A stretch of 64,000 nt of DNA from a virus: the IMG/VR virus record IMGVR_UViG_3300030108_003282, positions 1 through 64,000 of that record. One strand, 5' to 3'. Each line of letters starts with the position of its first letter. Within the stretch, counting starts at the first letter, position 1. The translations under genes and the position numbers were made by a program. Below the pieces are notes generated by a model. That model made no database searches, was not told the origin of the DNA, and saw only the letters and a program-made list of their open reading frames with translations. Shown here piece after piece: positions 3,634 through 50,943 of this stretch.

Positions 3634-3745
3634 AGATTGTCCACGATGTAAAAGAAGAATCAAACAATCCGATAGATATTTTTTACGAAGATATGGGGTT
3701 TGTGAAGAGTGTGTTAAAATAATGAGGTTGGGTAAGCATGAATAA
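3626..3745 (+). CDS. 39-aa zinc-finger peptide (not in track)
   Basis: MLEDCPRC...CEEC, GGAGG SD, overlaps both neighbours. Confidence 0.55.
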   Translation: MLEDCPRCKRRIKQSDRYFLRRYGVCEECVKIMRLGKHE

Positions 3746-4139
3746 GAAAAAGGCAATTACTGTTATTTTACCTGCCCCACATAAAGCAAGAGTTAAATGT
3801 CCCATTTGTTTAGGAAATAAATGCAAAGTTTGTGATATGACAGGAGAGTTGGCTATTGAAGTTGCTCCAAAGATTCCTATTCAAAGAGCGCACATTATTA
3901 AGTATGTTGCTGAAAATATGCATGAAATAGCAAAGGAAATAACCAAGAAATATGGTTTAGTTCCTGAAATTAATACTGCGGAAGTTTTAGAAGTGAATGA
4001 CGGACAATTTGAAATCGTTCAAATTTCAAGCCTCGGTGGTGTTTGTTGGGTGGTTAATCGTCTTGATGAATTAGATACACCAAGATATTTTACCTCAAAA
4101 CGAGAACTTGACAAGTTTAAACAGGGGTGGATGAATTGA
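3738..4139 (+). CDS. protein with DnaJ-like zinc knuckle
   Basis: CPICLG..CKVCDMTG. Confidence 0.65.
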   Translation: MNKKKAITVILPAPHKARVKCPICLGNKCKVCDMTGELAIEVAPKIPIQRAHIIKYVAENMHEIAKEITKKYGLVPEINTAEVLEVNDGQFEIVQISSLGGVCWVVNRLDELDTPRYFTSKRELDKFKQGWMN

Positions 4140-4348
4140 CAGATGAATTAGAAGTCAAAGGAACAATAGTCCGTAATGCTGAATTGGACTGTAAAATAAA
4201 GCGTGGTGTCTATTGGAATATAGAGGTCATGGATATTCGTTGGTATCGTAATGACAAACCAACAAATAAAGGCATTCGTTTGAATGTTGATGAAGCAAAA
4301 TTGTTATTACAAATTTTAAGGAGAGAATTAGATGAAGAGAGTAAGTGA
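4127..4348 (+). CDS. PC4/YdbC-like ssDNA-binding protein
   Basis: MDIRWY...KPTNKGIRL matches the PC4 DIR...PTxKGIxL signature. Confidence 0.8.
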   Translation: MDELTDELEVKGTIVRNAELDCKIKRGVYWNIEVMDIRWYRNDKPTNKGIRLNVDEAKLLLQILRRELDEESK

Positions 4349-4610
4349 TGTTCAATCAAAGAAAAGCCTACGGGCAGCAAATGAAGATAGACAATACGGG
4401 CATAATGCTGTTCCCCGTTTTGGAAACTGTGCTGGAAAAATTATTGATTTATTCGCACAATATGTTGAAGATAGTATGACTATTCCACCTAAAGGCGGAA
4501 GAGGTTGCCGTGTTCAAAAAGAACACATTGATTTGTGTTTTGGTAAGTTTTATCAGGCTATGAGAGAATTTATGGATAATGAAAAGAAAGGTGAAGAAAA
4601 TGAACAATGA
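4332..4610 (+). CDS. putative histone-fold protein
   Basis: short helix, long helix, then RVQKEHIDL, resembling the L2/alpha3 TIKAEDIEL or RIxPRHL motif. Confidence 0.45.
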   Translation: MKRVSDVQSKKSLRAANEDRQYGHNAVPRFGNCAGKIIDLFAQYVEDSMTIPPKGGRGCRVQKEHIDLCFGKFYQAMREFMDNEKKGEENEQ

Positions 4611-5585: not shown

Positions 5586-5814
5586 TTGGATATACTTGGC
5601 AAAAGCCATGTGGGAATATTCAGAAAAAAATGAAGGAAGAGTCAGTAGCCTTCTAAAACAACTGATTAAAGAAATAAATAACAATAAGGAGATGATTGAA
5701 AATGACATGGGAAAATATGAGCAGGATGCTACAAGCAACAGACCAATTGACACCGACTCAACAAATAACTCGAATTTCACGGGACTTGGAGACATTCACG
5801 ACGCAGAAGAGTAA
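5572..5814 (+). CDS. hypothetical protein
   Basis: SD-preceded ORF; its tail overlaps the ligase start. Confidence 0.55.
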   Translation: MKKSDWIYLAKAMWEYSEKNEGRVSSLLKQLIKEINNNKEMIENDMGKYEQDATSNRPIDTDSTNNSNFTGLGDIHDAEE

Positions 5815-7243
5815 TCCTTCTTTGGTTTTGCAGATTCTTGACAAAGATAAACTGGAAGCAAATAATCTTGGTTTAGCCAAAGCAAAAAAGTGGATGGCTA
5901 AAATCTTTGATGTTTTTGATGATGAAATTGATGGATTAATGTATGCTCACGATGATTTAGGAGAAGCAATTTATCATCTTGACCCGTCGGCTGAAAAGCA
6001 ACGAAACTTTTCGGTTCAGTATGTTCATCGTCTTTTGAACATGAATTGTGGAAAGATTGATTCTAATGAGTTTTCAATGATTGAAGAATCAATTTTGGCT
6101 ATGTCTGCAAACGCACGACGCTGGTTTATTCGCTATATGCTCAGAACTCCGAGAAACGGAATCAATGAAGGAACAGTAGCGAAGATTATTGCTAAATATT
6201 ACAATACGAGACAAGCAGTTGTAAAGAAACATTTGAATTTTAATTCTGTTGAAGTAGTTTGTCAGTATTATTCTAACTATTTAGAACCTCCTTGTGATTT
6301 AACTTACGGAAAGTTTGTAAAACCAATGCTTGCTAAGGAAGTTCCGATGAATAAATGGCCGACTGATTTTGTTGTTGATTACAAATACGATGGAAACAGA
6401 TACCAGATTCATATTGATGGCAACAAAACTATGATTTTTAATCGTAAAGGTAAAATTGTAACTCAGCAATTCCCCGATGTTGTTGAATTGGTTCAAGCAT
6501 ATGACATTCAAAACGCTGTTCTTGATGGTGAAATCTATCCTATCTTGGAAAATGGCTCTCCTGCCCCACACAAAACAATGGGAACAAGGGTTCATTCAAA
6601 GAATGTTCAAGAGGCTATGGAACGAGTCAAAGTAGAATGGGTTATTTTTGATTGTCTGATGCTCAATAACGAAACAGTCATGGATTTATCATATACAGAA
6701 CGATTGGAGAAGATGAAAGACCTTCCTAATCAAGCACACCGTATCACCGAAGGCGACATTATGGCCTTTTACCATGAAGCAATCAACGAAGGGTTTGAAG
6801 GAATCATCGTTAAAGATGCAAGCCAACCTTATCAATCAGGAAAACGCTCCGTTTCTTGGGCTAAATACAAACCTCCGCAGATAAACTTGGATGTTGTTAT
6901 CCTTTCCGCAAAATATGGAGAAGGAAAACGAGCCAATGTCTTCGGCACTTTTGAATTAGGTGTGAAGGCTGATAATGGTTTTCATAGCGTCGGTTGGTGT
7001 GGAACAGGCTTCTCGGATAGCGATTTAGTCCAATTGACCAACACGCTTCGTCGTAATGTTGAATCGTTTGAGAACGGACAATTCTTTGTTTCACCCGTAG
7101 TTATTCTTGAAGTTAAGGCTGATTTAGTTAGTCGTGATGCTAAAAATAATTTAGGGCTTAGATTCCCTCGTTGTATTCGTATTCGTGATGATAAGTTTGT
7201 TGCGGATATTAATACCTTGAAAGATGTGGAGAGATTAGAATGA
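5702..7243 (+). CDS. lig: ATP-dependent DNA ligase (replication arm)
   Basis: PMLA, KYDG, LDGE, FDCL, EGIIVK, WAKYK, LRFPR. Confidence 0.95.
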   Translation: MTWENMSRMLQATDQLTPTQQITRISRDLETFTTQKSNPSLVLQILDKDKLEANNLGLAKAKKWMAKIFDVFDDEIDGLMYAHDDLGEAIYHLDPSAEKQRNFSVQYVHRLLNMNCGKIDSNEFSMIEESILAMSANARRWFIRYMLRTPRNGINEGTVAKIIAKYYNTRQAVVKKHLNFNSVEVVCQYYSNYLEPPCDLTYGKFVKPMLAKEVPMNKWPTDFVVDYKYDGNRYQIHIDGNKTMIFNRKGKIVTQQFPDVVELVQAYDIQNAVLDGEIYPILENGSPAPHKTMGTRVHSKNVQEAMERVKVEWVIFDCLMLNNETVMDLSYTERLEKMKDLPNQAHRITEGDIMAFYHEAINEGFEGIIVKDASQPYQSGKRSVSWAKYKPPQINLDVVILSAKYGEGKRANVFGTFELGVKADNGFHSVGWCGTGFSDSDLVQLTNTLRRNVESFENGQFFVSPVVILEVKADLVSRDAKNNLGLRFPRCIRIRDDKFVADINTLKDVERLE

Positions 7244-7635
7244 GTGAAGAACACGCAAGTTGGAATGTAAAGTATATGCCCGATACTTTTGGGCGACCTC
7301 AAAAGATTTCTAAGATGAGTATTAAGCAGGTTGATAATCGTATTAGAAATACTAAAATGAGATTAAAAGCCAATAAATCTTGGTTAGATGGTCTTTATCA
7401 AAGAAGGGCTGTCTTAATGCTAAAAGCAGGAGACGTTGATTATCAACGAAAAAACACCAATGAGAAAATTATTCAAACTTTACAGTTAAGAAAGGACTTG
7501 GACACAGAAGAAGCCAAAGAAACTTACAATAGTAAATTGAAGGCTATTCTTCTTACTGCATTAGATTTCTTAGAGAGGGATAGACCCCTACCATTAATTA
7601 AAGCACTTCTTGAACAAGCGAGGGATGAATTATGA
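7240..7635 (+). CDS. hypothetical coiled-coil protein
   Basis: coupled ORF. Confidence 0.65.
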   Translation: MSEEHASWNVKYMPDTFGRPQKISKMSIKQVDNRIRNTKMRLKANKSWLDGLYQRRAVLMLKAGDVDYQRKNTNEKIIQTLQLRKDLDTEEAKETYNSKLKAILLTALDFLERDRPLPLIKALLEQARDEL

Positions 7636-8075
7636 TACAACAAGGAGAAATGACAATTATCGATGCAGTTACATATAGATGTTTAAAAATTGATGATGAA
7701 GGATATGCTCATCTTAAGAATATTTTACATGAACAAGGGCGACCTAAATTAGTTCTACAAAAGTATTGCCCATACATCAAAGATAATCAAATCGTTATTC
7801 CTGAGAAGCCAGTATATGAAAGACCAAAACCTACTACAAAAATTAGTATCACAAAGTTAATTCGTGAAAATACTAATTTTCAAGTTTCAAATAGCGCAAG
7901 GTATTTTATTACAGAATGGGTTGAAACGGCAATTGGCAACATGATAGCAAACGCAGAAGAAAACGCTATAAACAGGGGCGACTCACGCATAACCGAAGCA
8001 CACTTCTTTTGGCTTGAGACTAATAACGCACCTAATGGATATTGGCCCGAAAATAAGGAATATATGCAGGACTGA
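7632..8075 (+). CDS. two-domain protein with C-terminal archaeal histone fold
   Basis: ISITKLIRENTNFQVSNSARYFITEWVETAIGNMIANAEENAINRGDSRITEAHF aligns by eye without gaps to HMf-type IGRIIK...RVSDDAR...A...A...G..TIKAEDI. Confidence 0.65.
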   Translation: MIQQGEMTIIDAVTYRCLKIDDEGYAHLKNILHEQGRPKLVLQKYCPYIKDNQIVIPEKPVYERPKPTTKISITKLIRENTNFQVSNSARYFITEWVETAIGNMIANAEENAINRGDSRITEAHFFWLETNNAPNGYWPENKEYMQD

Positions 8076-8081
8076 TGTTTT

Positions 8082-8438
8082 ATGTTTAATGACTCTGAAA
8101 TCCAAAATTGGATTCTGGAGTTTGGAACAGCCACCAGTTTTACATTTATTGTTTATGGAGCAATAAGAGAAGAGGAACTTTTTACAATAACTAAAGGATT
8201 GATTATTTTTTTAGACTTAAAAGGATTCAACACGAATGTTGCTGTAGTTGATGAAACTATTGATGAGGATAAAGCAGTCGCTTGGAATACTTTTCAAGGA
8301 ACATCTGTTTCTTTTGTTTTTGCTGGGGATATGCTGGATGCAGAAGAAACTATTAAAGAAGTAGTGTTAGACGGGCTTAAATATCTAAGATACAAAAACG
8401 ACTATTTAGGATTTTATAGGAGTGATTCTCATGTATAG
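8082..8438 (+). CDS. acidic hypothetical protein
   Basis: ORF within operon. Confidence 0.65.
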   Translation: MFNDSEIQNWILEFGTATSFTFIVYGAIREEELFTITKGLIIFLDLKGFNTNVAVVDETIDEDKAVAWNTFQGTSVSFVFAGDMLDAEETIKEVVLDGLKYLRYKNDYLGFYRSDSHV

Positions 8439-8826
8439 TAAAGATATGTTAATTGGAATCTTACTATCAGCGAGTAAATTAGACTTTAATATTGAAAGAG
8501 CAAAAGACTCACAAATAGGCTATCGTGTAAGAATGAAAATCATCCTTCGTGCTGAAGAATCATTTCTTTTAGCAGTAAAGAGAACGCTTCTTCAACATGA
8601 AATTACTTCTTCTTACAAAGAAAAAGAGTCAAAGACTAGACCTAAACCAATTCTAAAGATTGGCGGTATCAAAAATCTGTATAAATTGACAGAATTGGTT
8701 CCTGATTTACCTGATGCAAAAGGGGAATGGAAAAAATTTAGAGAACTTGTAGAATTAATATCGGAAAATAAACATAGAACATCAAGTGGACTTGATAGAA
8801 TATTAGAAATAAAAGGGGTAATTTAA
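8431..8826 (+). CDS. degenerate single-motif LAGLIDADG-fold protein
   Basis: LIGILLSASK helix, GYRVR strand, KFRELVELI..NKHRT.SGL.RILEIK tail typical of I-CreI-like enzymes; catalytic acidic residue absent. Confidence 0.6.
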   Translation: MYSKDMLIGILLSASKLDFNIERAKDSQIGYRVRMKIILRAEESFLLAVKRTLLQHEITSSYKEKESKTRPKPILKIGGIKNLYKLTELVPDLPDAKGEWKKFRELVELISENKHRTSSGLDRILEIKGVI

Positions 8827-9671
8827 TGGGATTAACCAATAGAAATAATGATAATAGAACAATACTACTTACTGGAAAAACTGGAACGGGAAAATCAACA
8901 AAGGCACTTACATTCGTAAGTGACCCGATTGTTCTTTATGCAAATGATATTGATTTTGACGTAGGCTCATTTCCTGTGGAGAATGGTATCGTTATTGAAG
9001 ATGTGCATTACAAGCCCGATAAGTCGGCAATAATGCACATTATACGAAATTATCGTGGTCAAGTAGTATTGACTTCTATTAACCAAAAGTCGGTTCCCAA
9101 AGAAATTAAGGATATGTGTAAAATCAAAAGAGCAGGCTCTCATAATTTTCTTGAGGAAGAAATAAAAGCAATCGCTCCGAATAGCGAAAGTCCTTTCTCT
9201 TTAGATAGAGATACGTATTCTATTGTGAACGGTTTTCTTAAGGAAAGAAATAGAGATTTGGTTGCTGAAATTTTATTGTTTAATAAACCATCAGATACAC
9301 AAATTTTATCTTGGCTGTCTGAAAATATGCATCCCAATAGATTAATTTTTGTTGATGGAAGAGTTAAGCGAAGATGGAGTCAAAGATACTTTTATGAGAT
9401 GCTTGCATATTCTCATACAGGTTCTTTTGTTGGACAATTGAATATGCCAAAAAGAAGAGCATATTCACAAATACCAAAACTAGCAAGAAGGCTTGGTATT
9501 AAGAACCAAAGACTTCTTCCTGATTTATTGAAAGATGAAGCGTTTAAAGAACAGGCAAAAAAGAAACTTAACAATGCTGAGTGTCGTTTGCTTAAAATTG
9601 GTGAAAAAAGACGTAGAAAGAAAACTACACCCATTGTAATAACACAAACATCATTGGAGGAATACCTTTGA
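8826..9671 (+). CDS. clamp-loader large subunit-like AAA+ protein
   Basis: GKTGTGKST, IVIEDV; C-terminal PIP box QTSLEEY; close to the RFC small subunit. Confidence 0.7.
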   Translation: MGLTNRNNDNRTILLTGKTGTGKSTKALTFVSDPIVLYANDIDFDVGSFPVENGIVIEDVHYKPDKSAIMHIIRNYRGQVVLTSINQKSVPKEIKDMCKIKRAGSHNFLEEEIKAIAPNSESPFSLDRDTYSIVNGFLKERNRDLVAEILLFNKPSDTQILSWLSENMHPNRLIFVDGRVKRRWSQRYFYEMLAYSHTGSFVGQLNMPKRRAYSQIPKLARRLGIKNQRLLPDLLKDEAFKEQAKKKLNNAECRLLKIGEKRRRKKTTPIVITQTSLEEYL

Positions 9672-9802
9672 AACCAAAATGCAAAATGTATGAGTGTCCT
9701 AACTGTTATAATATAAAAATAGGAAGAAGCAAGACATATTGTATGCTTTGTAGAAGACATACACATAAAATAAAAATGCATGTAAAAGAATATATATTTT
9801 AA
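9668..9802 (+). CDS. 44-aa zinc-finger peptide, TTG start (not in track)
   Basis: CPNC...CMLC; GGAGG SD; TTGA overlap. Confidence 0.5.
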   Translation: MKPKCKMYECPNCYNIKIGRSKTYCMLCRRHTHKIKMHVKEYIF

Positions 9803-9814
9803 GGAGAAATAAAA

Positions 9815-10318
9815 ATGAAAATAACAAAAAGAACAGTAAACCACCCATCAAAAGTATTTTGGTATTGTAAGGTTTGTAAAGAAAGAAGAGAAGATTGGAA
9901 AAGTAGGCAAAAATATTCAACATATCCTTTTTGTTCCTCAAACTGTAAAAAGTCTTTTCACACAAAACATGCCTTTGACAACAAAGGATATAAAACCTTC
10001 TTTACAAAAGATAGATTTAAAATTTGGCTACATAATCAAATAAGTATCTTTACTCCTCAATTCACTTCTATTAGACAAGACCATTCTTTTAGAAAATTAG
10101 TCAGAGATGAATTGTGGGCAATTAGGAAAGAAATGGTTTTAACAGAAGCAATATATTTTATTGTATTTATGCTTCAAGAACATGGAATACCTTATGTTAA
10201 GGATAGAAAATTGTATAATAATGTGTTTGGAACACATATCTCTGCATTATTAATGCAAGAGTTTAATCAAACTGCTCTTGATTATTTAGAAGAGGCGACA
10301 AATCTTTTGGAGGAATAA
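9815..10318 (+). CDS. treble-clef/TRASH-like zinc-finger protein
   Basis: CKVC...FCSSNC. Confidence 0.6.
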   Translation: MKITKRTVNHPSKVFWYCKVCKERREDWKSRQKYSTYPFCSSNCKKSFHTKHAFDNKGYKTFFTKDRFKIWLHNQISIFTPQFTSIRQDHSFRKLVRDELWAIRKEMVLTEAIYFIVFMLQEHGIPYVKDRKLYNNVFGTHISALLMQEFNQTALDYLEEATNLLEE

Positions 10319-10320
10319 AA

Positions 10321-11229
10321 ATGCTATGGACAGAAAAATATAGACCAAAGAAATTAAACGATGTAATAGGGCAGGAACATTTTACCTCAGATGCAAGAGG
10401 CTGGGTTGAAGAAAAAAATATGCCTAATGTTCTATTATACGGAAATCCTGGAAATGGTAAAACAGGTGCAGGATTAGCCATTGGAAGAGAAATATTGGGT
10501 GAAACATTTCAAGACAATTATGTTGAGGTAAATGCTTCGGATGATAGGCGTTTAGAAAATGTACGAACTACTATTAAGAATATTGCACAAAGCGGAACAA
10601 TTGGCGATGCACCATTCAGAATCGTATTATTAGATGAAATGGATGGTATGACTACCGATGCACAAAATGCCTTAAAGCGCATTATGGAAAGATATGCAAG
10701 TAATATTCGTTTTATCATTACCTGCAACGATAGAAATAAGATTATCTTTGCATTACAAAGTAGATGTGCAAATTATCATTTTAGACCCCTCTCTAATGAG
10801 GCCATGATGGACGTTTTATCTTCAATTCTTAAGGCTGAGGAAATAACCAAATTCTCGCAAGATGAATTGCACTCCTTTATATATGCTATGAATGGTGATA
10901 TGCGGAGGGCGATTACGGAACTACAAGCGGCAAAGGCAAGCAATTCCACCCTCAAAACGCAAATAAATGCAGGATTAAATGAATATAAGAAATTACTAAT
11001 GAAAATTATCAATAAAGATACCTTCGCATTAAGCAATATACATGACCTACTACATAACGGATTTACTATCCGTGAGGTTTGTATTGGCTTACATGACGCA
11101 GTTATCGAGACTGAATTAGATAGCAATATTAAATTCAAAGTATTACGAACAATAGGAGAAAGCGAATGGCGTTCAACCACTATGACTCCAAAGGTTTTAG
11201 CATCTTGGCTGATTAGTCAATTATCATAG
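10321..11229 (+). CDS. rfcS: replication factor C small subunit
   Basis: WTEKYRP, GNPGNGKT, NASD, LDEMD, ALQSRC, GDMRRA. Confidence 0.95.
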   Translation: MLWTEKYRPKKLNDVIGQEHFTSDARGWVEEKNMPNVLLYGNPGNGKTGAGLAIGREILGETFQDNYVEVNASDDRRLENVRTTIKNIAQSGTIGDAPFRIVLLDEMDGMTTDAQNALKRIMERYASNIRFIITCNDRNKIIFALQSRCANYHFRPLSNEAMMDVLSSILKAEEITKFSQDELHSFIYAMNGDMRRAITELQAAKASNSTLKTQINAGLNEYKKLLMKIINKDTFALSNIHDLLHNGFTIREVCIGLHDAVIETELDSNIKFKVLRTIGESEWRSTTMTPKVLASWLISQLS

Positions 11230-11270
11230 AATTGAACAAAACAAAACAAAAAAAATATGGAAGTGTAAAT

Positions 11271-12494
11271 ATGGATGAAAACATGAAAACAGAAATTGTA
11301 AAAAGTGCATCATACATCAGTATGACCGCAGAAGAAGCGATGAGCAAATTTGAAGAGATTTGTTCTGAAAACAACATTGAAACGACAAACCCTATCGCAA
11401 AGGGTCTTTGGAGAAACTTTGTTGCGAATGTGCGAAGAACCCAAAATACAGAAGGTTCTGAACAAAAGAGCAACGATTCTTACTTTAAGGCCGCTTTTGG
11501 TTTCTTCGTTTCTTTGGATGCCCCAAGAGATATGATGGCTTGGAACAGAATGAAGGCAAAAGAAGAGTTTATGCGTGATGCAGATAACGCCCTTGAACAA
11601 GGTATTGTTGCGATTGCTTCGCAAAATGCTCTTGGAAAGTGGGTTGTTTCCCGTTATCATAACGGTGAATACGGTGAAAAGACTGTTTCTACTCTCCCTT
11701 CGGGTGCAGAAGAAGCAGAAGATGGCCGTTTCTACATTCCTTTGGATAATACTGCTACCTACATGAATGGTGGTAAAAACAACAATTACGGTAAGCCTCT
11801 TCCCGCAGAACAAATGCGACGAAGTGGTGTGTTCTTTGGTTCTATTGGAGCAAGTGAGGAAATGAAGCCCTATTACTTCTCCTACAAGAATCAAGCGGGT
11901 GTTGATTTTGCACCGAATACTTTTGAATGGGTACATTTCCTGTGTATTGTCAATGATGCAGGAACAGATATTTATGGTGCAAAGGACTTGACTTTACAAA
12001 GTCTTTCGCTTAACTCTGACATGAACCCTGAAAATGAACTTTATCGTGATATGTCGTCCTTTGACTTTGAGGACTGTTTGAGAGAAAACTTTGAATCTCA
12101 TCTTGTTCCTCTTGTTGATATGGATAAAGCACACATTGGCCGACAAGCCCTTCCTTCTAAGGAAAGATATGTGATTACAGACGGAACTGTTTGTAATATG
12201 AATATGACTCCAACAAAGAACGGAAACAGAATCATTAATCTAACTGATTTAAATGCAGAAATGGATTATGATTCCGATGAAAGCGGCATTACTACCTGCT
12301 GGATTCCTGAACATTTGTCTCTTGATTTCGGTATTGGTTCTTCTGTTATTGTTATTGGCAGAACAAGCCAAAGAACGACAGATGAAGGAGTTGAACCAAC
12401 AACAATCAATGTTGCTGGTATTTACTGCACAGTTCGTCATGGTTCAGCAGTAGAGGTTTCAGTTCCAGTAGAAGAGGACTTCGACTGGTTTTGA
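11271..12494 (+). CDS. rpa: RPA-like OB-fold ssDNA-binding protein
   Basis: N-terminal helical domain, C-terminal OB fold (LTD...TCW...IG), acidic-aromatic tail EEDFDWF; replication context. Confidence 0.65.
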   Translation: MDENMKTEIVKSASYISMTAEEAMSKFEEICSENNIETTNPIAKGLWRNFVANVRRTQNTEGSEQKSNDSYFKAAFGFFVSLDAPRDMMAWNRMKAKEEFMRDADNALEQGIVAIASQNALGKWVVSRYHNGEYGEKTVSTLPSGAEEAEDGRFYIPLDNTATYMNGGKNNNYGKPLPAEQMRRSGVFFGSIGASEEMKPYYFSYKNQAGVDFAPNTFEWVHFLCIVNDAGTDIYGAKDLTLQSLSLNSDMNPENELYRDMSSFDFEDCLRENFESHLVPLVDMDKAHIGRQALPSKERYVITDGTVCNMNMTPTKNGNRIINLTDLNAEMDYDSDESGITTCWIPEHLSLDFGIGSSVIVIGRTSQRTTDEGVEPTTINVAGIYCTVRHGSAVEVSVPVEEDFDWF

Positions 12495-25552: not shown

Positions 25553-25906
25553 CTATTCCACCTCCATTGTAATAAAAATCTGTAATCTTTCAGACGCACT
25601 AAATGGGCCAACTCCCTGAAAATTTACTCTTTGAAGCAAACTGCCGCTTGCTGGTGTTGCATGATTAAATAAACCTGCTTCTCTTACAACTAAACCAGTG
25701 ATTGCTGTTCCTAATATTTCTAGTTTTACTTGAACAACATTTTCACTAGCCTTTTCTACTGATTTAGATACAGTAATAGACTCAATGGGAACATCAAGAG
25801 TATTTGCTAAAGGAGATGTAGAATTACCTCCTTGTCCTATTTGTCCACTTAATATTTCTTCTTTTAATTTAGTTGCTAAAATTTTTCTTAATTCATCTGT
25901 TATCAT
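25553..25906 (-). CDS. tail tip / fibre-attachment protein
   Basis: IG.G...REAGLFN pattern common in tail-collar proteins. Confidence 0.6.
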   Translation of the reverse strand: MITDELRKILATKLKEEILSGQIGQGGNSTSPLANTLDVPIESITVSKSVEKASENVVQVKLEILGTAITGLVVREAGLFNHATPASGSLLQRVNFQGVGPFSASERLQIFITMEVE

Positions 25907-28900
25907 AAATCTTCCTCCAAGAGTGTTGTGTGGGTAATTGTCCCTCCCCCGAATCCTATCGTGCTTGTGTCCGTATTTAAAGTGTGCGAGAAACCTAAAG
26001 TGATTCCTGTCTGCGTCCTCTTTCGCAAAACCAGATTTATTTCTTTTATCTTTATATTTTCAAAGAAATCAAAATTGAAATCGTTTTCTAAAAAGTCCTT
26101 TTTTCTAAGGTATGAATCTGTCTGTTTATTAGATAAAAGTAATTCTGAAAATCTGTCTTCAACACCTTTTTTGTATTTTCCTAAAACCAAAGTAGTTAAA
26201 CCACTAATTTCATATTTCATTTCTAAAACCATATATAAGTTTCTTGGTATATTTTCCTGCTTTATTTCAACAATAACAATATCTCCACTTGAAACTGTTT
26301 CTGCATCTCTAATGTGAGTTTTTATTTCTAAATTACCAGTATCATTATTATGTATATTTAATAGTTCAAAGGCTCGTTTATCTACATCTGATTGTGATTT
26401 AAGTTTTTTGTCAAACACTTCTAATGTCTTTTTTCCTATGTTCTTAATGCTGCGAATGTTTTTCTTTATTGCTTTATGACTGCTACCGTAAACAACTATT
26501 TCATTATAGAAATCAAAACCACTATCAACTAATTCGTATTCAATTATGTTATCATCATCAAACTCATATTTAGTAATAGTATTGGAATCTAAAATATCTC
26601 TTGAAGTAATTGTTCCAGCATTATCAAATAAAGTTTTATCTTTAAGATTTAAAAGATACTTTGCTAAAGTATATAATGAAGAACCTTGAAAATCAGGAGA
26701 AGCAAAAATACTGTAATCTGAAGAAACTAAAGAATGGCTAATATCGTTTTCAATAAACAACTCTTCTACTAACTCTTCTGCTTCTCTTGAAATATCAAGA
26801 GTTGCTCCTATGATGGCTCTTTTATCTGTGTTTTTTATATCTCCATTTATTTTGAGTTCAAAAGTTTCGGAAATAGAAACGGCTCCCTGTAGGTATTTTA
26901 GGTTTTCAAAGGATAAAGAGTGTATTTTTTGACTGGACCTCGAAGAACCAGTTAAATTACCAACAACATTAGTTTCTCCATCAGAAGCACATATTTCAAC
27001 ATTCATTCCATCAGCAGTAATTAGATTTTGTAATTCTGTTCTCGACCTTAAAACTGTTTTATTACTTTGTCCTATATTATCTAAATCAATGACACAATAC
27101 ATTGACAAAATACCTTCGTTTAAATCTGAAATTGATGTTCCTGAATTATCTTCTGTTATTCCAGCATCTTTATTTCCATAAACTTTTATCTGACCATACA
27201 TTTCAGAAGAATTAGGTTTCTTAGTATATGCTGAGGAAAGTTGGTTAATATTTATTTCTTTTGGGCTTGTATTCCAAAAGCAGACAGGATTTGGTTGCAT
27301 TATTTTAAATACTATCCCATTAAAATCAGAATGAGATATATCAACATCTAAAGTAATAAAGGAAAAATCTTCATCATCCGATACACTAGTTGAAGTATCA
27401 TAAACATGAGAAACGACATATGCAAAATTATCTACATGAACATCCTTTGAGAAGGCGTTGCTTGAATCAATTGTTGCACCAGTGGTGTCTTGGCCTTTAA
27501 TTGGAACCAAATAACAACCAGTTAAATCTAAAAATTGTAAAAAGTTATATTTACCTTTATGACTAAATTTGAATTGATAATAAGTTTTGTTTCCAGATGC
27601 TTTCTTTTCAATTGGATAACTAGTTGCTGATTTAAGCCCTATTCCTGAACTAGCAGATGTTCCTGTCTCTCCACTAATAAAAAAGAATTTATATCCAGAA
27701 TATGCTCCTGCTAAGGAAGTAAAGTTATTATTACCAGAAACATCACCTAATATACTGTATCTTGAATCGTCATACAAAGGAACAACTAAATCATTACTAC
27801 CATCCGTTAGGTGTTCTAAAGATAATCCTCCCAAAGTATGCGTTTCACCCGCTTCAACGTCTCTTCCGCTTTCTACACTATATCCTTTTAATAAAACAAC
27901 CTTATGTCTTGTCATGTTTGCTAAACCATATTCTGTATAATCAATTGTTGGTAAATTAGCATAGTCTAGTTGTTTAAATATTCTGGAAAGATGAAAGTTT
28001 TTCTTGGGTCTTTTTGTAATAAATGTTAAACTTCCAGTATGAGTTGCAGAAGCAGCCGCACTTAAAGTCACAGTGGTTGAACCACCAATAGCAGTAATAT
28101 AAACTCCTGCGGCAATACCAAAATTAGTAGTTTCTCCAATTGCTCCAACACCAACATAAGCCCCCACTTCTAATTTAGAAGAGTCCTGAACAGTTAATGT
28201 TGTAGTTCCATTAGTGGAACAAGTTTGAGACACCCTATCAATTAAAAATGCTCTAGTTTGATTTTCTGAAAAAACAAATGGGCTTACCATACCATAATTT
28301 TCTCCGCTTCTAGCAATTTTAAGTAATTTTTCTGAGTATTTATCAAAGAATTTATTATTAGGATTTAAAGAACTCCCAGTATTATCATCGCAAAAAACTC
28401 TAGCACTGGCAAAAAACATATTTTTATTTGGATGCAGACCGCTTTGTTTTTCGCTCGCTATTTTGTAAATAACACTATTTGCTTCTTTACCAGATATGTC
28501 AGAAAATACAGTATTTGATTCAGTTGCACTTATTCTTCGGAGAGTTCCCGTGTATAAAGCACCATTATTAGATAAGTGATTTACATTGATAGAAACACTT
28601 GCGCCTGTTGGAGTAGAATTAACTTCACCCCAAATAACATTTTCTGCAAGGTCTACTAATAAATCATTGACTTGTAAATTTGTAGGAGTTCCAGTAATAG
28701 TTACTGTTGAATCTCTTCCAGAAAAAGTACCATAGTCACTTGTTGCAGAAATAGAAATTGCCGTTCCTCCTGAATCAACAACTGTTTCAACATCGTAATT
28801 AAATACTTTATCTAATTTTTCTATATATCTATTTTCATCTATCTCTTCTTCTGGATTTATTGGATTGTAAGCATAATCAGTAACTAATTCTGTTAATCTC

Positions 28901-31900
28901 ATCAACCCAAATCTTTTAAGACTCGATAAAGTCTTATCAGATTCAATAATTGAACTATGGGAATATGATGAATCTAAATGAGAAACTCTTCTAGTATCAC
29001 CGACAACCGATTCTTTGTTCTCTCCTGAATCGTATTTTAAAAGGTCGCCAAAACTCAAAAGTCCATACTTTTCAATATTTCTTGTTGCACTATTCATCAA
29101 ACTATCTTTTCTTGTAGAAGAGTAAGGATAAATATCACAATTAGCAAATAAAAATAGCCTAGCAGCATTTGGGCTAGGATGATACAAAGTGTCTTCTACT
29201 TCTAAAGAATTAGCAAAACCAGAAGAAAGGGCTTGGTCGCTTAAAACTCTATAGTCATGTGAAACATTCAATGAGGCCGAGTTTGGTAAAATTCTTCCAT
29301 AGTAATTAGAATAGGTAATTGGGCGTAAGCCTCTTCGTTCAATAGGCAACACCCTTGAGTCATAAACATTAGAACCACCAGAAATATTATATTTAACAGT
29401 ATTTTTGCCTTTATATGAAGTAGCATAGTAATTAAAAATGCCTTTGGGTCTAATTATAGAGTTTGGATTATTTAATCTGCCTAAAGTTTGATTTATAGCG
29501 TTAAATCCATTGCTTGGGCCAATAAGACCTTTTTCTAAATTAAAAATTCTAAAAATAGAGTTTCCGAATTTATTGGAGTAAGATATGTGAGAAGAAGTAT
29601 CAAATGTTTCAAATTCAATTATGTTGTTATCTGTTCCTAAAAGACCAATAATTTTTCCACCATGTAAATGACTTCCATTAATTAACTGGAGTTCATGGTG
29701 TATTTTAGATGTTGGGACTTGTATTGATTTTCCAGAAGACCAACCAGAAAGATAAGGTTGTTCTACCGTTGTAAGTAAGAAAGAATCTGAAACAGAAGAA
29801 GAAGGCTGAATTGATTGAAAAAGAAGCCTTCCTACAAATTTTTCATCAACATAAATAGGAGTGTGAAATGGAATACTAAAGGAAGTAAAGTTTCCAAAGA
29901 TTTGACCGTCACTTACAGTAGAAGAAGAAGTGGTTGTTCCTATAGTAGTAAATGTTAATTCGCTTTCATTTTCGTAATTAGTATGGCCTCTTCCTAAAGC
30001 AATTGGAACATGGGGCGCTAATTTTACTACGCTATTTGTTGATTCCTTTCTAATTTGTAATATATTAAAGTCAATTAATGTATTTATAGGCTCGTCCGAA
30101 AATATTGTGCCTTTTGCTAAAAATATAGAATCTTGTGTGCCTACTGAATCTGTTTGGTCTATATTATATCCTATTGCTCTAACATCTGTATTATCAGAAG
30201 TTCCCGATAATTCTTTTACTTCTGCTCCTGAAGAGTCTAATTCTGTTCCATCACGAAATGACAGCCCTTTATTTGCTGCTCCACTTAAATCAGTTGAACT
30301 AGATATTTGTAAGTTTGAAGCCATCGCTTTATTAAATATTACTTGCTTTGTTGCAGTATGCGCTGTTCCCGAATAGTGAATCAAAGGAAAATCTTCTAAA
30401 GTTCCGCTTGTTGAGGAAGAAATGTCGCTTTGTAATTTACCAATAAAACCTATATCTCCAAAAATTTCAGTTCCAGCAGTTAAAGTGACATTTGCTCCAA
30501 ATGTTAATGCTTTGCTCTGTAGGCTTGTTGTAGCAACAGTTGTCCCTAATGAAGTTAATTTTTTGTATGGGCTTCTTGAAGAATAAATAGCATCTAATGA
30601 ATATAATGAATCTCTATTTACAATCGGATTCACCAATTTGCTGAAAGTATTTCTTCCTCCAATTGTTACGATGTTATTCCCATTTTCTATTTTTCTAGTA
30701 ATTTTTTCAATCTTTCCAGTAAAAACTTCATATAAAATAACATATTCTCCATTTACATATTCTAAACCATTATCATCACTATCGTGATAATTATTTTCAA
30801 AATTTAAATACAGTAATTGATAAGTGTTATCAATAGAAACACTAGTATGGGGAGAAAGGGGTGTTTGATATGCTACGACAGTTGCTTCTATTGCTTTAGC
30901 AGAATCCGAATAAAGAACGACTCGTAATCTATCTAAACTGGTATCTTCAAATTTAACACGAGTTAATAAATTACTATTTGATAAATTAAATGCCCTGCGA
31001 TACACCTTTTCTCCGCCAAGTAAAGTGGTCATATCAAAAGTAGTTGTGAATTTTCCTTCTGTCAATAATCTACTTTTTTCGGTAAGAACAATCTCATTAC
31101 CATTACGACTTGAAACGATACAAACCCTATCTCCTATCCTTATTTCATCATTTTGATTAAAGTATTCTGAAATGTTAATATGTTCACCATAGGTAGCATT
31201 TTTTAAGTCATAGAAATATGATGTTGATGAAACAGTCACAAAAGAATCTATTTCTCCTACTTGTACCCAATCATTAAAACTACCAGTTCCTATTGCTTGT
31301 CGGATAATATAATCTTGATTGGTCTGTAATTTTTTTCCTAAAATTTGATTATTATCAATTACTTTAGTTTCTGAATATCCTGCCTTACCATCAATTGATT
31401 CTTCGATATACGAATCAAAAACATTATTTAGTAAATTGCTTTTATTAGGAGAGTCTCTATAATGAGTGTATCTAGTTAAACCATTTAATGAGAGAGAAGA
31501 GTAATTATCATCACTATCCCTTCTTGCATTAATAAAACAATCGTTATAGTCATCATAATCAGTAAAAGTCCCAGAAAGAACAGAACTTTCATTACTAGTT
31601 GCAGTATTGGGGTCATCTTTTAATTTAAGATTATCTTTTAATTTGACAACATAAGAATACTTGCTTGAGTCAATAACTCTATAATGGGTTTCAGCCATTG
31701 TTACGAAAGAAACTTTTTCGGCACTAGCACTTAAATCAATACTATTTCCACTACTTGCTTCGTGTAATCTAACAAAATATTTAGTATTATGGTCTAATTC
31801 ATTATCCTTTACTGTTTTATCATTGTAAAAATACCATAACGGTCTTGATACAACATAATTTGCTCCAAAGGTAGAAGCATCTAAGCCTCCAGTAATTGCG

Positions 31901-32382
31901 ACGATTTTAGTAGAATTAGCAATAGATGGTCCTTTAAAAATCATAAACTTCGTTCCTTTAGCGACCCTATTACCAAATTTAGGCTCAAAAGTAAAGGAAT
32001 CTCCGTTAGAATCAGCGTTTTCTACTGTATCAATTTTAGCAAAGTGATGCATATTAGCATCATCAGAATGGATTAAAACAAAATAAGTGTCTGTTGTTAA
32101 ATCAATACTAGCCAAATCAACTCCATTTGTTCCATCATAACATCTTATAGTGTGTCCGTTTGTATTATCCAAATTAGAATATTCTGTTAAAAGAGCAGTA
32201 CCAACTTTTTCAATAACTGTATTTGCATTTGAACCGAGTAAAGTATCATCAGTATGAATAATTCCAAAAACTCTTTGTGTAAATGCAGTATTTTTAGTTA
32301 TTTTGGGATTAGTAGGAACATCATAATTATTATCTGCCGTAGCATTGTAAATAGAAGTCAAACCGCCAACTGTTAATGTCAT
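25903..32382 (-). CDS. very large (2159 aa) tail-tip/hub protein
   Basis: beta-rich; C-terminal hub-like NEIVVYG...SI..IG.K...GD.V; position after the Dit-like gene. Confidence 0.7.
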   Translation of the reverse strand: MTLTVGGLTSIYNATADNNYDVPTNPKITKNTAFTQRVFGIIHTDDTLLGSNANTVIEKVGTALLTEYSNLDNTNGHTIRCYDGTNGVDLASIDLTTDTYFVLIHSDDANMHHFAKIDTVENADSNGDSFTFEPKFGNRVAKGTKFMIFKGPSIANSTKIVAITGGLDASTFGANYVVSRPLWYFYNDKTVKDNELDHNTKYFVRLHEASSGNSIDLSASAEKVSFVTMAETHYRVIDSSKYSYVVKLKDNLKLKDDPNTATSNESSVLSGTFTDYDDYNDCFINARRDSDDNYSSLSLNGLTRYTHYRDSPNKSNLLNNVFDSYIEESIDGKAGYSETKVIDNNQILGKKLQTNQDYIIRQAIGTGSFNDWVQVGEIDSFVTVSSTSYFYDLKNATYGEHINISEYFNQNDEIRIGDRVCIVSSRNGNEIVLTEKSRLLTEGKFTTTFDMTTLLGGEKVYRRAFNLSNSNLLTRVKFEDTSLDRLRVVLYSDSAKAIEATVVAYQTPLSPHTSVSIDNTYQLLYLNFENNYHDSDDNGLEYVNGEYVILYEVFTGKIEKITRKIENGNNIVTIGGRNTFSKLVNPIVNRDSLYSLDAIYSSRSPYKKLTSLGTTVATTSLQSKALTFGANVTLTAGTEIFGDIGFIGKLQSDISSSTSGTLEDFPLIHYSGTAHTATKQVIFNKAMASNLQISSSTDLSGAANKGLSFRDGTELDSSGAEVKELSGTSDNTDVRAIGYNIDQTDSVGTQDSIFLAKGTIFSDEPINTLIDFNILQIRKESTNSVVKLAPHVPIALGRGHTNYENESELTFTTIGTTTSSSTVSDGQIFGNFTSFSIPFHTPIYVDEKFVGRLLFQSIQPSSSVSDSFLLTTVEQPYLSGWSSGKSIQVPTSKIHHELQLINGSHLHGGKIIGLLGTDNNIIEFETFDTSSHISYSNKFGNSIFRIFNLEKGLIGPSNGFNAINQTLGRLNNPNSIIRPKGIFNYYATSYKGKNTVKYNISGGSNVYDSRVLPIERRGLRPITYSNYYGRILPNSASLNVSHDYRVLSDQALSSGFANSLEVEDTLYHPSPNAARLFLFANCDIYPYSSTRKDSLMNSATRNIEKYGLLSFGDLLKYDSGENKESVVGDTRRVSHLDSSYSHSSIIESDKTLSSLKRFGLMRLTELVTDYAYNPINPEEEIDENRYIEKLDKVFNYDVETVVDSGGTAISISATSDYGTFSGRDSTVTITGTPTNLQVNDLLVDLAENVIWGEVNSTPTGASVSINVNHLSNNGALYTGTLRRISATESNTVFSDISGKEANSVIYKIASEKQSGLHPNKNMFFASARVFCDDNTGSSLNPNNKFFDKYSEKLLKIARSGENYGMVSPFVFSENQTRAFLIDRVSQTCSTNGTTTLTVQDSSKLEVGAYVGVGAIGETTNFGIAAGVYITAIGGSTTVTLSAAASATHTGSLTFITKRPKKNFHLSRIFKQLDYANLPTIDYTEYGLANMTRHKVVLLKGYSVESGRDVEAGETHTLGGLSLEHLTDGSNDLVVPLYDDSRYSILGDVSGNNNFTSLAGAYSGYKFFFISGETGTSASSGIGLKSATSYPIEKKASGNKTYYQFKFSHKGKYNFLQFLDLTGCYLVPIKGQDTTGATIDSSNAFSKDVHVDNFAYVVSHVYDTSTSVSDDEDFSFITLDVDISHSDFNGIVFKIMQPNPVCFWNTSPKEININQLSSAYTKKPNSSEMYGQIKVYGNKDAGITEDNSGTSISDLNEGILSMYCVIDLDNIGQSNKTVLRSRTELQNLITADGMNVEICASDGETNVVGNLTGSSRSSQKIHSLSFENLKYLQGAVSISETFELKINGDIKNTDKRAIIGATLDISREAEELVEELFIENDISHSLVSSDYSIFASPDFQGSSLYTLAKYLLNLKDKTLFDNAGTITSRDILDSNTITKYEFDDDNIIEYELVDSGFDFYNEIVVYGSSHKAIKKNIRSIKNIGKKTLEVFDKKLKSQSDVDKRAFELLNIHNNDTGNLEIKTHIRDAETVSSGDIVIVEIKQENIPRNLYMVLEMKYEISGLTTLVLGKYKKGVEDRFSELLLSNKQTDSYLRKKDFLENDFNFDFFENIKIKEINLVLRKRTQTGITLGFSHTLNTDTSTIGFGGGTITHTTLLEEDL

Positions 32383-48400: not shown

Positions 48401-50938
48401 CTATTCTTCGGTAGGAAGGGGTAATTTGTTATACCTATCTTCATAAATATTCCACTTTCCTTCATCCCCTTCCTTATCAGCAGGAGTTTGTTTATATCCA
48501 GTCCATGCAAGCCACATTCTTTGTCCATCTACGTCTAAGACTCTATAATGCATTTTAGTTTCAAACTTGTTGCCTTCTAAGAAATATTCATGATAGCCGT
48601 CCCTTTGAATGCCTAATCTTATCTTTCCAGAATCAATAACTTTTCCCTTAGTTACTGTTTTTGCTACTTCTGCTGGATATTTCCCAGCCGCACCGAATAA
48701 ATCAAAAAGTTCTTCCTCATTCTCGACATTAATTGTCCAAAACATATTTTCAGTTTTAAGTTTGATTGCTAATGTTATATTATCATCTTCTCTCGAATAA
48801 AGTTTGAATTCACCCTCTCTTAACTCAGGCGGTGTTTTATATTCACCTTCGACGGCTTTAATATCTTCTTTTTTAATTTCTTCTTCCTGCATGATTTTAT
48901 CATCATCAGCAACTATTTTATTGTCTTTTTCGCTAATACCGTCTCTAAGAATAGACCATTGTTTAAGTTTTTTCTCATCAGAATCAAGAACCTCTTCATA
49001 TAAACTGGGCTGTTTTTCTTTTAAGAAATTATGTAATTGTTTTGGTGTCTTAGGACCATTCATTTTTAAATGCTGAAAAATAGCAACAGTTAAATCGCTT
49101 TGTTTTGATTTCATAATATCAATTACCTGTTGCTTCCACATATCTAAATCCATTGTAGCATTTCTAGACATTAGATTATCTTCTTCATAGCCATAGATTG
49201 TAAATCCATCTATATCATATTTGATAATAATATTTGCTTCTCCATGAATATGGTCAGTAATTTTTATTCCTTTTGTGAATGCTTCAACATCATAATTAAG
49301 AGATTTCTTAGTGTCTTGAGAAAGTAATTCTAATGTGACTAGTTTATCGGGATGTTCTACTTCGGGAATCTCAATAGGTTTTGCTGAAAACAAACTAAAC
49401 CCGTCTCCCTTCTTTTTGACTTCATCTACCTTTACTCGAATAATATCCCCAACATCTACAGAAATTTTTGTATTGAGTGCTTTACCTACATTCAAATAAT
49501 GTCTTTTCTTTATTTCAACTGCTCCAGTCATTTCTTCATCAACTGGCCCAACACCCACAGTATAAGAAAATAGATTACTTTTTGTTTTCTTCTTATCTAA
49601 AACAATAACATCTAAGTCAACAAACTTCTTCAATTTAATCCATTTTGGATTTTTCTTAGTGCCAATATAATAAGTTGAAGTAGCGTCTTTAATAACTACT
49701 CCTTCAGATGTAGGAATTTGCATCATTTCTTCTGCATACTTCTCAATATCTTTTAAATTATCTGCTTGGCGAGTATCTTTCTTTGATGGATATGCTATCG
49801 CTTCGCTAGATTTAGAGGAATAGTTATTGAATAAAATTGTCATTCGGTTCTCTAATTCTTCGTCTGCCAATGTCTGAGATTCGTGGCGAATAATATCAAA
49901 AACATGGCATCGAAGTTTAGCGTCTTTATATTTCCCTTTGAAGACATGAGCGACGGTATCGGCTCTATGAAGAGGCTCATCATTATTAAAAAGAACCAAT
50001 TCTCCATCTAAAATACAATCACCATACTCTTTTTTCTTTAATTCCTTTACTTGTTCTTTACATTGTTCAGAAATGTCTTTACCATTAAATGAATATATTT
50101 TAACATTGTCATCAATTTTATGCAACTGGACTCTCATCCCGTCGTATTTTTCTTGAACATACCAGTTGCCACTAAACCCTTTTAATTCATTAATATCATC
50201 TACTTCAAAAATTCTATACATGGGTTTATTAGGAATAATAAACTGCGATATGGACTTTTTCTCATCACTCGGAATAGACTTCTCTAATCCGTCTATATCT
50301 TTCAGTTCTTCCCAATCTTCCTCTTCATTTTTAGAAAAGAAGATTAGTTCTAACATATCCATAGCAGCCTTTACTTTCGATTCGACCTTTTTTGAGTCTT
50401 TTCCGTCTCCGTAATGTTCTATAATATAGAGGGCTATGTCGTCCGATTCTAGGTCAAGACCCATAAGACCCTCCGTAATTGTGTCGGGACGCATCCCTTT
50501 AACACTATAAATGTCAGCAGATAGGGCTTTATTATCGTCCCTTAATGCATAATGCACAAATTTAACCATAGTTTCTGGATTATCTAACAATTCTTCAAGA
50601 ACACCGTCCTTGAACATCGTTGCGAAAGGGTCAGCAACGATAGATGAGGAATAGCGAAGAAGTTTTACTTTATCAAACAGTTCTTTTGCTTGTCTTGAAG
50701 AAGGGTCTTTTGCGTCTTTGTCTTCTAAATCCTTTTCATCAATAAAGTTTCTCATCTCTTTTCCTGCGGCATCACTCTCATTATAAGAGTCTATAATCAT
50801 ATCAACCGCTTTACGCCAACGACCCGAATATTCTGTAGGGTCTTGTCTTGCAGATAAATAGGCAACTCTTGTCTTTTCAAATAGACGAAGAATTTCTTGG
50901 GAAGGCTGTTTATCCTTCTCAATAGAACCCAACTTCAT
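48401..50938 (-). CDS. lig: second ATP-dependent DNA ligase (multidomain) in the head module
   Basis: EKYDG, LDGE, FDI, EGVVIK, WIKLK, OB domain; N- and C-terminal extensions. Confidence 0.9.
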   Translation of the reverse strand: MKLGSIEKDKQPSQEILRLFEKTRVAYLSARQDPTEYSGRWRKAVDMIIDSYNESDAAGKEMRNFIDEKDLEDKDAKDPSSRQAKELFDKVKLLRYSSSIVADPFATMFKDGVLEELLDNPETMVKFVHYALRDDNKALSADIYSVKGMRPDTITEGLMGLDLESDDIALYIIEHYGDGKDSKKVESKVKAAMDMLELIFFSKNEEEDWEELKDIDGLEKSIPSDEKKSISQFIIPNKPMYRIFEVDDINELKGFSGNWYVQEKYDGMRVQLHKIDDNVKIYSFNGKDISEQCKEQVKELKKKEYGDCILDGELVLFNNDEPLHRADTVAHVFKGKYKDAKLRCHVFDIIRHESQTLADEELENRMTILFNNYSSKSSEAIAYPSKKDTRQADNLKDIEKYAEEMMQIPTSEGVVIKDATSTYYIGTKKNPKWIKLKKFVDLDVIVLDKKKTKSNLFSYTVGVGPVDEEMTGAVEIKKRHYLNVGKALNTKISVDVGDIIRVKVDEVKKKGDGFSLFSAKPIEIPEVEHPDKLVTLELLSQDTKKSLNYDVEAFTKGIKITDHIHGEANIIIKYDIDGFTIYGYEEDNLMSRNATMDLDMWKQQVIDIMKSKQSDLTVAIFQHLKMNGPKTPKQLHNFLKEKQPSLYEEVLDSDEKKLKQWSILRDGISEKDNKIVADDDKIMQEEEIKKEDIKAVEGEYKTPPELREGEFKLYSREDDNITLAIKLKTENMFWTINVENEEELFDLFGAAGKYPAEVAKTVTKGKVIDSGKIRLGIQRDGYHEYFLEGNKFETKMHYRVLDVDGQRMWLAWTGYKQTPADKEGDEGKWNIYEDRYNKLPLPTEE

Positions 50939-50943
50939 ACAAA

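Follow-up and report, generated by a model that had tools for sequence, protein, structure and literature searches.

A predicted histone fold joined to a KOW-like barrel in the replication block of a magrovirus

Introduction

Viral KOW histone-fold proteins (VKHFP) of Caudoviricetes were mined from IMG/VR 4 by Liu et al. (hLife 2025, PMC13681535) and are defined by a histone fold, a long loop and a KOW domain that resembles KOW6 of Spt5 (5OHQ) structurally, not in sequence. The paper is purely computational and states neither the virus group and host nor the gene context, the residues conserved or the function (PMC13681535). Here we report the analysis of HF147, the 147-aa product of an open reading frame (ORF) at 7632..8075 (+) of a 64,000-nt stretch of viral DNA (positions 1 to 64,000 of the IMG/VR record IMGVR_UViG_3300030108_003282; hereafter, the window). 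Like VKHFP, HF147 is encoded on IMG/VR contigs of tailed viruses and combines a histone fold on a long loop with a KOW-like barrel that matches 5ohq, and it matches the published definition, the comparison being with that definition. The class was already published in 2025, and the picture of viral histones is therefore unchanged; new with respect to the VKHFP paper are the magrovirus identity, the slot in the replication block, the absence from cellular genomes, an H2A-like L2 loop, the C-terminal tail (C-tail) and the closest solved relative.

Histone folds related to that of HF147 have been studied in archaea and in other tailed viruses. In nucleosomal archaeal histones, the L2 loop contains an R-K-T motif, the Arg of which is clamped by an Asp of alpha3 seven residues on, thereby fixing L2 (PMC13260811). 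MJ1647 (8bdk) is a histone variant of Methanococcales with a C-terminal extension; although it has no L1 arginine, it is able to bind, compact and bridge DNA (PMC10516927). The 'phage histones' of Schwab et al. 2024 (PMC11390915), for which Liu et al. use the name VTTHFP (PMC13681535), have an N-terminal fold, an alpha3 of 3-4 residues and a long C-terminal tetramerising helix. HF147 resembles these 'phage histones' in that both are histone folds encoded by tailed prokaryotic viruses, and differs from them in its alpha3 of 9 residues, in the C-terminal position of the fold and in having a beta-barrel as the extra domain.

Magroviruses are tailed viruses of marine Poseidoniales archaea, their presumed hosts; they rank among the commonest viruses of archaea in the surface ocean and carry an almost complete archaeal-type replisome. 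Magrovirus group B has GroEL and two ligases, and group B1 has a split polymerase (PMC5434244). Neither a protein of this kind nor histones are mentioned in the magrovirus papers, the survey of archaeal tailed viruses, the ICTV profile, the viral-histone review or Irwin & Richards.

In this study, we describe the sequence and structural evidence for the histone fold of HF147, its conserved residues, its genomic context and distribution, and weigh a predicted role in viral replication against other possible roles. Since the virus group, the gene slot, the residues to mutate and MJ1647 as a model are supplied, biochemical tests can be designed directly.

Results and discussion

Organisation of HF147

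The gene comprises the following parts.

7632..8075, +: whole HF147 gene, 147 aa, with KOW-like barrel, linker and histone fold
7632..7805, +: N-terminal SH3/KOW-like beta-barrel, residues 1-58 (model strands 7-55; VIA-align to Spt5 KOW domains)
7806..7844, +: basic Pro/Lys linker, residues 59-71 (isoelectric point (pI) 10; from the sequence)
7845..8024, +: predicted histone fold, residues 72-131 (HMMER profiles, AlphaFold2 model, Foldseek, VIA-align), with alpha1 73-80, L1 81-86, alpha2 87-115, L2 116-121 and alpha3 122-130 in the AlphaFold2 model
8025..8072, +: aromatic C-tail, residues 132-147 (conservation; alphaC helix 139-146 in the model)

The whole protein has a pI of 5.66 and its histone-fold part a pI of 4.7. 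The barrel opens with a G-E-M-T-I-I motif, and its residues G5 and T8 are invariant within the close family. In the linker, K59, K66 and K70 are mostly kept as basic residues, and the family profile aligns this basic stretch with the one that precedes alpha1 of H2B. The C-tail is likewise conserved, with G136 and W138 invariant and Y144 also aromatic.

Sequence evidence for a histone fold

Taken alone, HF147 matches the Pfam family PF00808 (CBFD_NFYB_HMF) with an E-value of 0.057 and 14.2 bits, below the cut-off of 21.4 bits (HMMER), and a phmmer search of the PDB with this single sequence gave no match. Homologues of near-identical length form 67 clusters in marine metagenomes, and of 27 sampled ones 25 match PF00808 (best E 2.4e-6) and seven match the core-histone model; in three of five complete related genomes the HF147 orthologue passes the curated cut-off of PF00808. 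Searched against the PDB, a profile of the close family retrieved histone-fold chains only (top 8bdk, E 7.8e-4). A profile of the diverse family, with members down to 28% identity, reached MJ1647/8bdk at E 8.7e-9 and also matched many H2B chains (E ~2e-6 to 1e-3), NC2beta (E 2e-3, in an alignment that extends into alphaC), HMfA (E 7e-3) and an Asgard histone, while the profile matches of the family to NF-YB have E-values of 0.01-0.002. Though the copy in the window is weak, its match is beyond chance, because homologues, family profiles and orthologues pass.

The sequence-only reading of this DNA had aligned approximately residues 72-126 without gaps to archaeal histones, and the searches bear this out: residues 73-124 align ungapped to positions 8-60 of the 65 of PF00808, and family-profile positions 70-124 to residues 5-59 of MJ1647/8bdk. 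The alignments to histones stay in register through alpha1-L1-alpha2-L2-alpha3 and include the L1 Ser and the alpha2 pattern Ala-x3-Ala-x3-Gly. The motifs quoted in that reading are all present, namely VSNSAR at 85-90, the ladder A108-x3-A112-x3-G116-x3-I120 that closes the long helix, and D117-S118-R119-I120...H124. S86, A108, A112 and H124 are nearly invariant in the family down to ~28% identity, and the two-domain architecture is kept over the same range. The JGI pipeline annotates some family members as 'histone H3/H4', and PHROGs and NCBIfam have no family for HF147 or its small neighbours.

Predicted structure

The AlphaFold2 model of HF147 was built on a 27-sequence alignment and has a mean predicted local distance difference test score (pLDDT) of 81.7. 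It places strands across residues 7-55 and helices at 73-80, 87-115, 122-130 and 139-146. The three helices of the fold, with 8, 29 and 9 residues, have the short-long-short geometry of a histone fold, and it stands behind the beta domain and a Pro/Lys linker of about 57-71, as the sequence-only reading had proposed.

In a Foldseek search of the PDB, the list of matches consisted nearly entirely of histone chains (E ~0.04, probability ~1), the best local fits being to CHRAC and NF-Y (1.2-1.4 Å over 60 columns). VIA-align, run independently of Foldseek, matched residues 70-147 to CHRAC, NF-YB, H2B, NC2beta and Dpb4 at Z 6.2-6.8 (6.8 for NF-YB and CHRAC), and all top rows of both programs for these residues are histone-fold chains. 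Archaeal histones follow closely, with HMfA at Z 6.4 (2.0 Å, 62 of 65 residues), HMfB from the hypernucleosome structure 5t5k at Z 6.3 (1.9 Å, 62 of 67 residues) and the Asgard histone HHoB at Z 6.3 (1.8 Å, 23% identity). The highest identity among the structural matches is that of NC2beta (24% over 70 aa, Z 6.3). The alignments to NF-YB, CHRAC, H2B and NC2beta reach residue 147, where the alphaC helix has a pLDDT of only 54-58. The outcome of the Foldseek and AlphaFold checks is a three-helix histone fold with histone chains on top, not the AAA+ lid considered as the alternative in the sequence-only reading.

Profile statistics and structural Z-scores together, since a Z of 6-7 alone is insufficient, show residues 72-131, at the level of sequence and predicted structure, to be a true histone fold of full length that is homologous to the histones of archaea and eukaryotes.

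For the barrel (residues 1-58), VIA-align gave KOW5 of Spt5 at Z 6.1 (root-mean-square deviation (rmsd) 2.5, 53 aa) and KOW6-7 of human DSIF, 5ohq_A, at Z 5.8 (rmsd 2.3, 48 aa). The Pfam KOW signature (PF00467) was found neither in HF147 at E<=1 nor in the 27 members at E<=0.1, and for this reason the resemblance of the barrel to KOW domains is a structural one only. A protein-atlas search with residues 1-62 gave no usable match.

DNA-contact residues

The sequence-only reading had noted an altered L2 loop, and D117-S118-R119...H124 do stand where MJ1647 has R-K-T...D: with respect to MJ1647, the Arg of L2 is replaced by D117, the Lys by S/K118, the Thr by R119, and the Asp of alpha3 by H124. 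Several other candidate contact positions are kept basic among 46 aligned sequences, including K/R78 of alpha1 (45/46), R/K119 of L2 (40/46), R115 (most sequences) and K75 (about half); the linker has a median net charge of ~+3 in the same set. In a profile comparison, the L2/alpha3 motif K/S-R-I-T-x-A-H aligns with K-R-I-T-P-R-H-L of H2A, and because of this the L2 loop looks, from its sequence, like an H2A-type variant and not like a decayed loop.

Comparison with characterised histone folds

MJ1647 is the best profile match of HF147, and the two are alike in having no L1 arginine and in carrying an extension after alpha3, which for HF147 is modelled as helical at low confidence. MJ1647 differs in that it is cellular, keeps G-R-K-T-I...D and is without an N-terminal domain; its extension of 27 aa is a proven tetramerisation module, whereas that of HF147 has ~17 aa and is aromatic. 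HMfA and HMfB (1b67, 5t5k) share with HF147 the full alpha1-L1-alpha2-L2-alpha3, the L1 Ser and the Ala/Gly pattern of alpha2. Unlike them, HF147 is not a standalone fold of ~67 aa and is not basic, its L1 Arg and R-K-T/Asp are replaced, and it has two extra modules.

Over residues 70-147, with the modelled alphaC, HF147 is structurally closest to folds of the H2B class (NF-YB, CHRAC-14, Dpb4/POLE3, NC2beta and H2B), several of which bind DNA as accessory subunits of machines for replication or transcription and are not nucleosome cores. HF147 and H2B also both have a basic stretch before alpha1. Identity to the class is 13-24%, a relation at the level of the fold superfamily only, and the L2/alpha3 motif of HF147 resembles that of H2A, not H2B. 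Proteins of the H2B class are obligate heterodimers with an H2A-class partner, for which HF147 has a candidate only, ORF92 (see below).

Genomic context and distribution

The virus record has 94,926 bp and is rated 100% complete. The genome carries a GroEL-type chaperonin, two ATP-dependent ligases, an RFC-like clamp loader, a family-B polymerase, a tail tube protein and head genes, and by this gene content it is a complete magrovirus, group B/B1-like; the assignment is made because its repertoire equals that described in PMC5434244. The fixed neighbours of the HF147 gene are the following.

5696..7243, +: ATP-dependent DNA ligase, fixed upstream neighbour (Pfam 1e-39; synteny)
8422..11229, +: fixed downstream neighbours, comprising a 134-aa ORF, a 281-aa P-loop ATPase and an RFC-like clamp-loader subunit (Pfam, synteny)
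8422-8826, +: 134-aa ORF, universally conserved in relatives
8826-9671, +: 281-aa P-loop ATPase, universally conserved, with a Walker A motif

The ATG of HF147 overlaps the stop codon of a preceding 131-aa ORF (ATGA), and the following ORF begins 7 nt past the HF147 stop. Beyond the Walker A motif, no Pfam, PHROG or NCBIfam family was found for the 134-aa ORF and the 281-aa ATPase. All 80 loci (80/80) have the same order, from the chaperonin to the ligase, a variable small ORF, HF147, a variable 118-aa ORF, the 134-aa ORF, the P-loop ATPase, RFC and a 420-aa ORF. Divergent relatives keep the HF147 slot at 33-38% identity of HF147 and 42-59% identity of the ligase.

Relatives of HF147 are encoded on 137 IMG/VR contigs, with a single PF00808-detectable gene per genome examined. 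A pattern-limited scan of 185,579 prokaryotic species, each represented by a single genome, found no cellular relative, a tblastn search with HF147 of 50,697 GenBank phage records gave no match, and a profile of the histone fold alone retrieves the two-domain viral family only. Within these searches, HF147 is thus shown to be specific to viruses, and its place in the replication block of magroviruses to be fixed.

In marine RNA-seq libraries of two studies, short contigs match positions 7425-7644 and 7652-7865 at 98-99% identity. They are compatible with transcription of HF147 and are no proof of it, as most of the 2-kb stretch is uncovered and DNA carry-over is possible.

In two metagenome members of the family, of ~103-106 aa (P0078 and P0088), the histone fold and tail follow a short N-terminus that differs from the KOW-like barrel, which may mean either that versions of the fold without the barrel exist or that the gene calls are truncated. 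For the protein P0087, no relatives were found among the viral contigs. A 1022-aa match with seven stretches (P0092) proved to be an Fn3/Fib_succ surface protein and was rejected as spurious. One relative (L011) lies on IMGVR_UViG_3300021958_000021, which is 184.7 kb long and rated 100% complete, ~2x the usual 92-97 kb of magroviruses, a length that concatenation or chimeric assembly may explain.

Proposed function and alternatives

We propose, with a probability of about one half, that HF147 is an accessory factor of viral replication that binds DNA as a dimer, and not a nucleosome former. To our knowledge, every characterised histone fold pairs through an alpha2 handshake, and by analogy HF147 would pair in this way into a dimer, with itself or with another protein. 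The dimer would contact double-stranded DNA via K75 and R78 of alpha1, R119 of L2 and the basic residues of the linker, while the KOW-like barrel and the aromatic C-tail would serve to dock further proteins of replication or transcription, from the virus or from the host. In the infected cell, HF147 would then act as an architectural or accessory DNA-binding factor of viral genome replication, in a role that may be comparable to that of the H2B-like subunits Dpb4, CHRAC and NF-YB rather than to nucleosome-like wrapping. DNA contact is proposed because the basic residues of alpha1, L2 and the linker are conserved and because MJ1647 binds DNA without an L1 arginine. The replication role is proposed because HF147 is fixed between the ligase and clamp-loader genes, even in divergent relatives. 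A virus-only histone fold inside a replisome block would represent use of the fold outside genome packaging in a prokaryotic virus. With its 147 residues, HF147 is also a tractable protein for the study of fold adaptation, bringing together an H2A-like L2, an H2B-like tail with a predicted alphaC and a KOW-type adaptor.

Several points weigh against this proposal. The clamp between the L2 Arg and the alpha3 Asp is absent from HF147, and the position of the L1 arginine (R19 of the RT pair of HMfB) is occupied by Q84 and is variable across the family. Classical DNA-wrapping histones are basic, and the fold core of this family is mildly acidic (median net charge -2; pI 4.7 in HF147); the proteins of this virus are acid-shifted overall (median pI 6.1), and therefore the acidic core weighs only mildly against DNA binding. 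In the model, the last 20 residues, comprising the C-tail and alphaC, have a pLDDT of 54-58, and the mutual placement of barrel and histone fold is uncertain (predicted template modelling score (pTM) 0.48). The position in the replication block is only circumstantial evidence for a replication role, and KOW domains are more familiar as parts of transcription factors (NusG/Spt5). The family is known from computation alone, and its dimeric state is what we infer for it.

A role in transcription is the first alternative, in which the barrel docks on RNA polymerase, as in Spt5/NusG, or on another transcription component and the fold engages promoter DNA or TBP-DNA much as NC2 or NF-Y do, redirecting host transcription to viral genes. 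Such a factor would account for the match of the barrel to Spt5 KOW domains (Z 6.1 and 5.8), for NC2beta being the highest-identity structural match (24%; profile E 2e-3) and for the NF-YB profile matches (E 0.01-0.002); a PC4-like gene lies 3 kb upstream, and a viral TFB is listed in the ICTV profile of a related virus. However, the similarity to NC2 and NF-Y is no stronger than that to H2B or CHRAC, the 27 members have no Pfam KOW signature, and the immediate fixed neighbours are a ligase, an ATPase and a clamp loader. Searches of this genome with the Pfam models of TFIIB and TBP gave no match, so that neither domain is detectable in it. We consider a transcription factor unlikely, while giving it some weight.

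HF147 could also be a viral chromatin protein, whose dimers polymerise and wrap or bridge DNA in the manner of HMf or MJ1647, compacting or shielding the replicating viral genome. In line with this possibility are the 1.9-Å overlay of its core on HMfB as seen in the hypernucleosome, the basic residues kept in alpha1 and L2, and a conserved C-terminal extension that could serve oligomerisation, as in MJ1647. Against it stand the replacement of the L1 Arg and of the L2 Arg/alpha3 Asp clamp, the latter by D117/H124, and the net negative fold core. The dimer-dimer interface of HMfB, which we take to be formed by L46, H49, D59 and L62, differs at the equivalent positions of HF147 (N111, N114, H124 and W127). 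Moreover, tailed-virus heads package naked DNA, and HF147 is encoded in the replication block, not in the structural block. Overall, we regard a chromatin protein as quite improbable, and nucleosome-like wrapping in particular is unlikely in view of the replaced L1 Arg and L2 Arg/alpha3 Asp clamp, the mildly acidic core and the packaging of naked DNA by tailed viruses.

A further alternative is an antagonist of host chromatin, in which the viral fold heterodimerises with a histone-fold protein of the host and poisons it. Histone folds pair promiscuously, which would favour such a mechanism. The presumed hosts encode a target of this kind, as Poseidoniales have a single unusual acidic four-fold histone; this host protein, however, is itself predicted to lack DNA binding and already has its partners in cis (PMC13260811). 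In addition, HF147 has no detectable sequence relation to any cellular protein, and MJ1647 shows that divergent histones do not readily cross-dimerise (PMC10516927). This makes antagonism very improbable. Mimicry of host histones is unlikely because the only histones of the presumed host order are atypical, acidic four-fold ones (PMC13260811) and because the searches found no relative of HF147 in cells. Of the sequence-only reading, which had offered a viral chromatin protein, a histone mimic or a transcription regulator in the replication operon, the placement of a viral protein in the replication block is upheld, and the choice among the three roles is not established.

Finally, a chance helix-loop-helix likeness without a histone fold, for example an AAA+ lid-like bundle, is hardly credible: HF147 alone falls below the Pfam cut-off and finds nothing in the PDB with phmmer, one of the 27 homologues has a marginal AAA_lid_3 match (E 0.015), and Z-scores of 6-7 are reachable by common helical arrangements, but the family profiles reach E-values down to 8.7e-9 with exclusively histone-fold proteins, orthologues pass the Pfam cut-off, and the alignments are ungapped and in register, with the L1 Ser and alpha2 Ala-x3-Ala-x3-Gly.

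A candidate partner of HF147

A partner of HF147 in the dimer might be encoded upstream, where two overlapping genes are found.

4127-4348, +: 73-aa ORF with a match to PC4, the ssDNA-binding transcriptional coactivator p15 (PF02229, E 3.8e-4, sub-threshold)
4332..4610, +: ORF92, 92 aa, possible cryptic second histone fold and candidate partner (from its model; follows the PC4-like gene)

The PC4-like ORF, which overlaps the start of ORF92, is conserved across relatives, and ORF92 itself is conserved in all loci that cover the region (53/53). The ORF92 model has a pLDDT of 90.8 and helices at 6-16, 26-47 and 63-91; it matches CENP-X at Z 7.0 (2.4 Å, 72 of 75 residues), and its top Foldseek matches are HapE/NF-YC, TAF12 and H2A. 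On the strength of this model, ORF92 may be a cryptic second histone fold. Sequence-level support for such a fold was not found, and hhalign gave a probability of 0.35% against the HF147 family. In a partial-distance mirror-tree analysis of 10 genes from 50 non-identical loci, a crude test, the HF147-ORF92 pair has a partial r of -0.17 and ranks 40 of 45, and so shows no excess of co-evolution.

HF147 and ORF92 could form a virus-owned heterodimer of H2B-like and H2A-like subunits, tethered by the KOW barrel to the viral polymerase, the clamp or the host RNA polymerase, a pairing that we hold to be decidedly doubtful. If true, it would be the prokaryotic-virus counterpart of Dpb3-Dpb4, NC2 and NF-Y, and heterodimeric accessory histone pairs would occur outside eukaryotes.

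The background-corrected distances of HF147 correlate most with those of a zinc-ribbon ORF at 3738..4139 (0.77), the 420-aa ORF at 11232-12494 (0.69) and the ligase at 5696-7243 (0.68), which probably reflects rate heterogeneity between clades. The place behind the PC4-like gene is taken, in divergent magroviruses, by ORFs of 76 aa (L097, 5881-6111, +) and 83 aa (L099, 6196-6447, +) that look unrelated. These small ORFs read like alpha1-L1-alpha2-L2-alpha3, with links that are marginal only (hhalign E 0.01; TAFII28 E 0.077).

Other features of the window

Two further features were noted in the leftward structural block.

48401-50947, -: second ATP-dependent ligase domain, within an 848-aa protein of the structural block
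25903-32382, -: single ORF of 2159 aa that opens the block

A second ligase among the structural genes was described for magrovirus groups A and B by Philosof et al. (PMC5434244).

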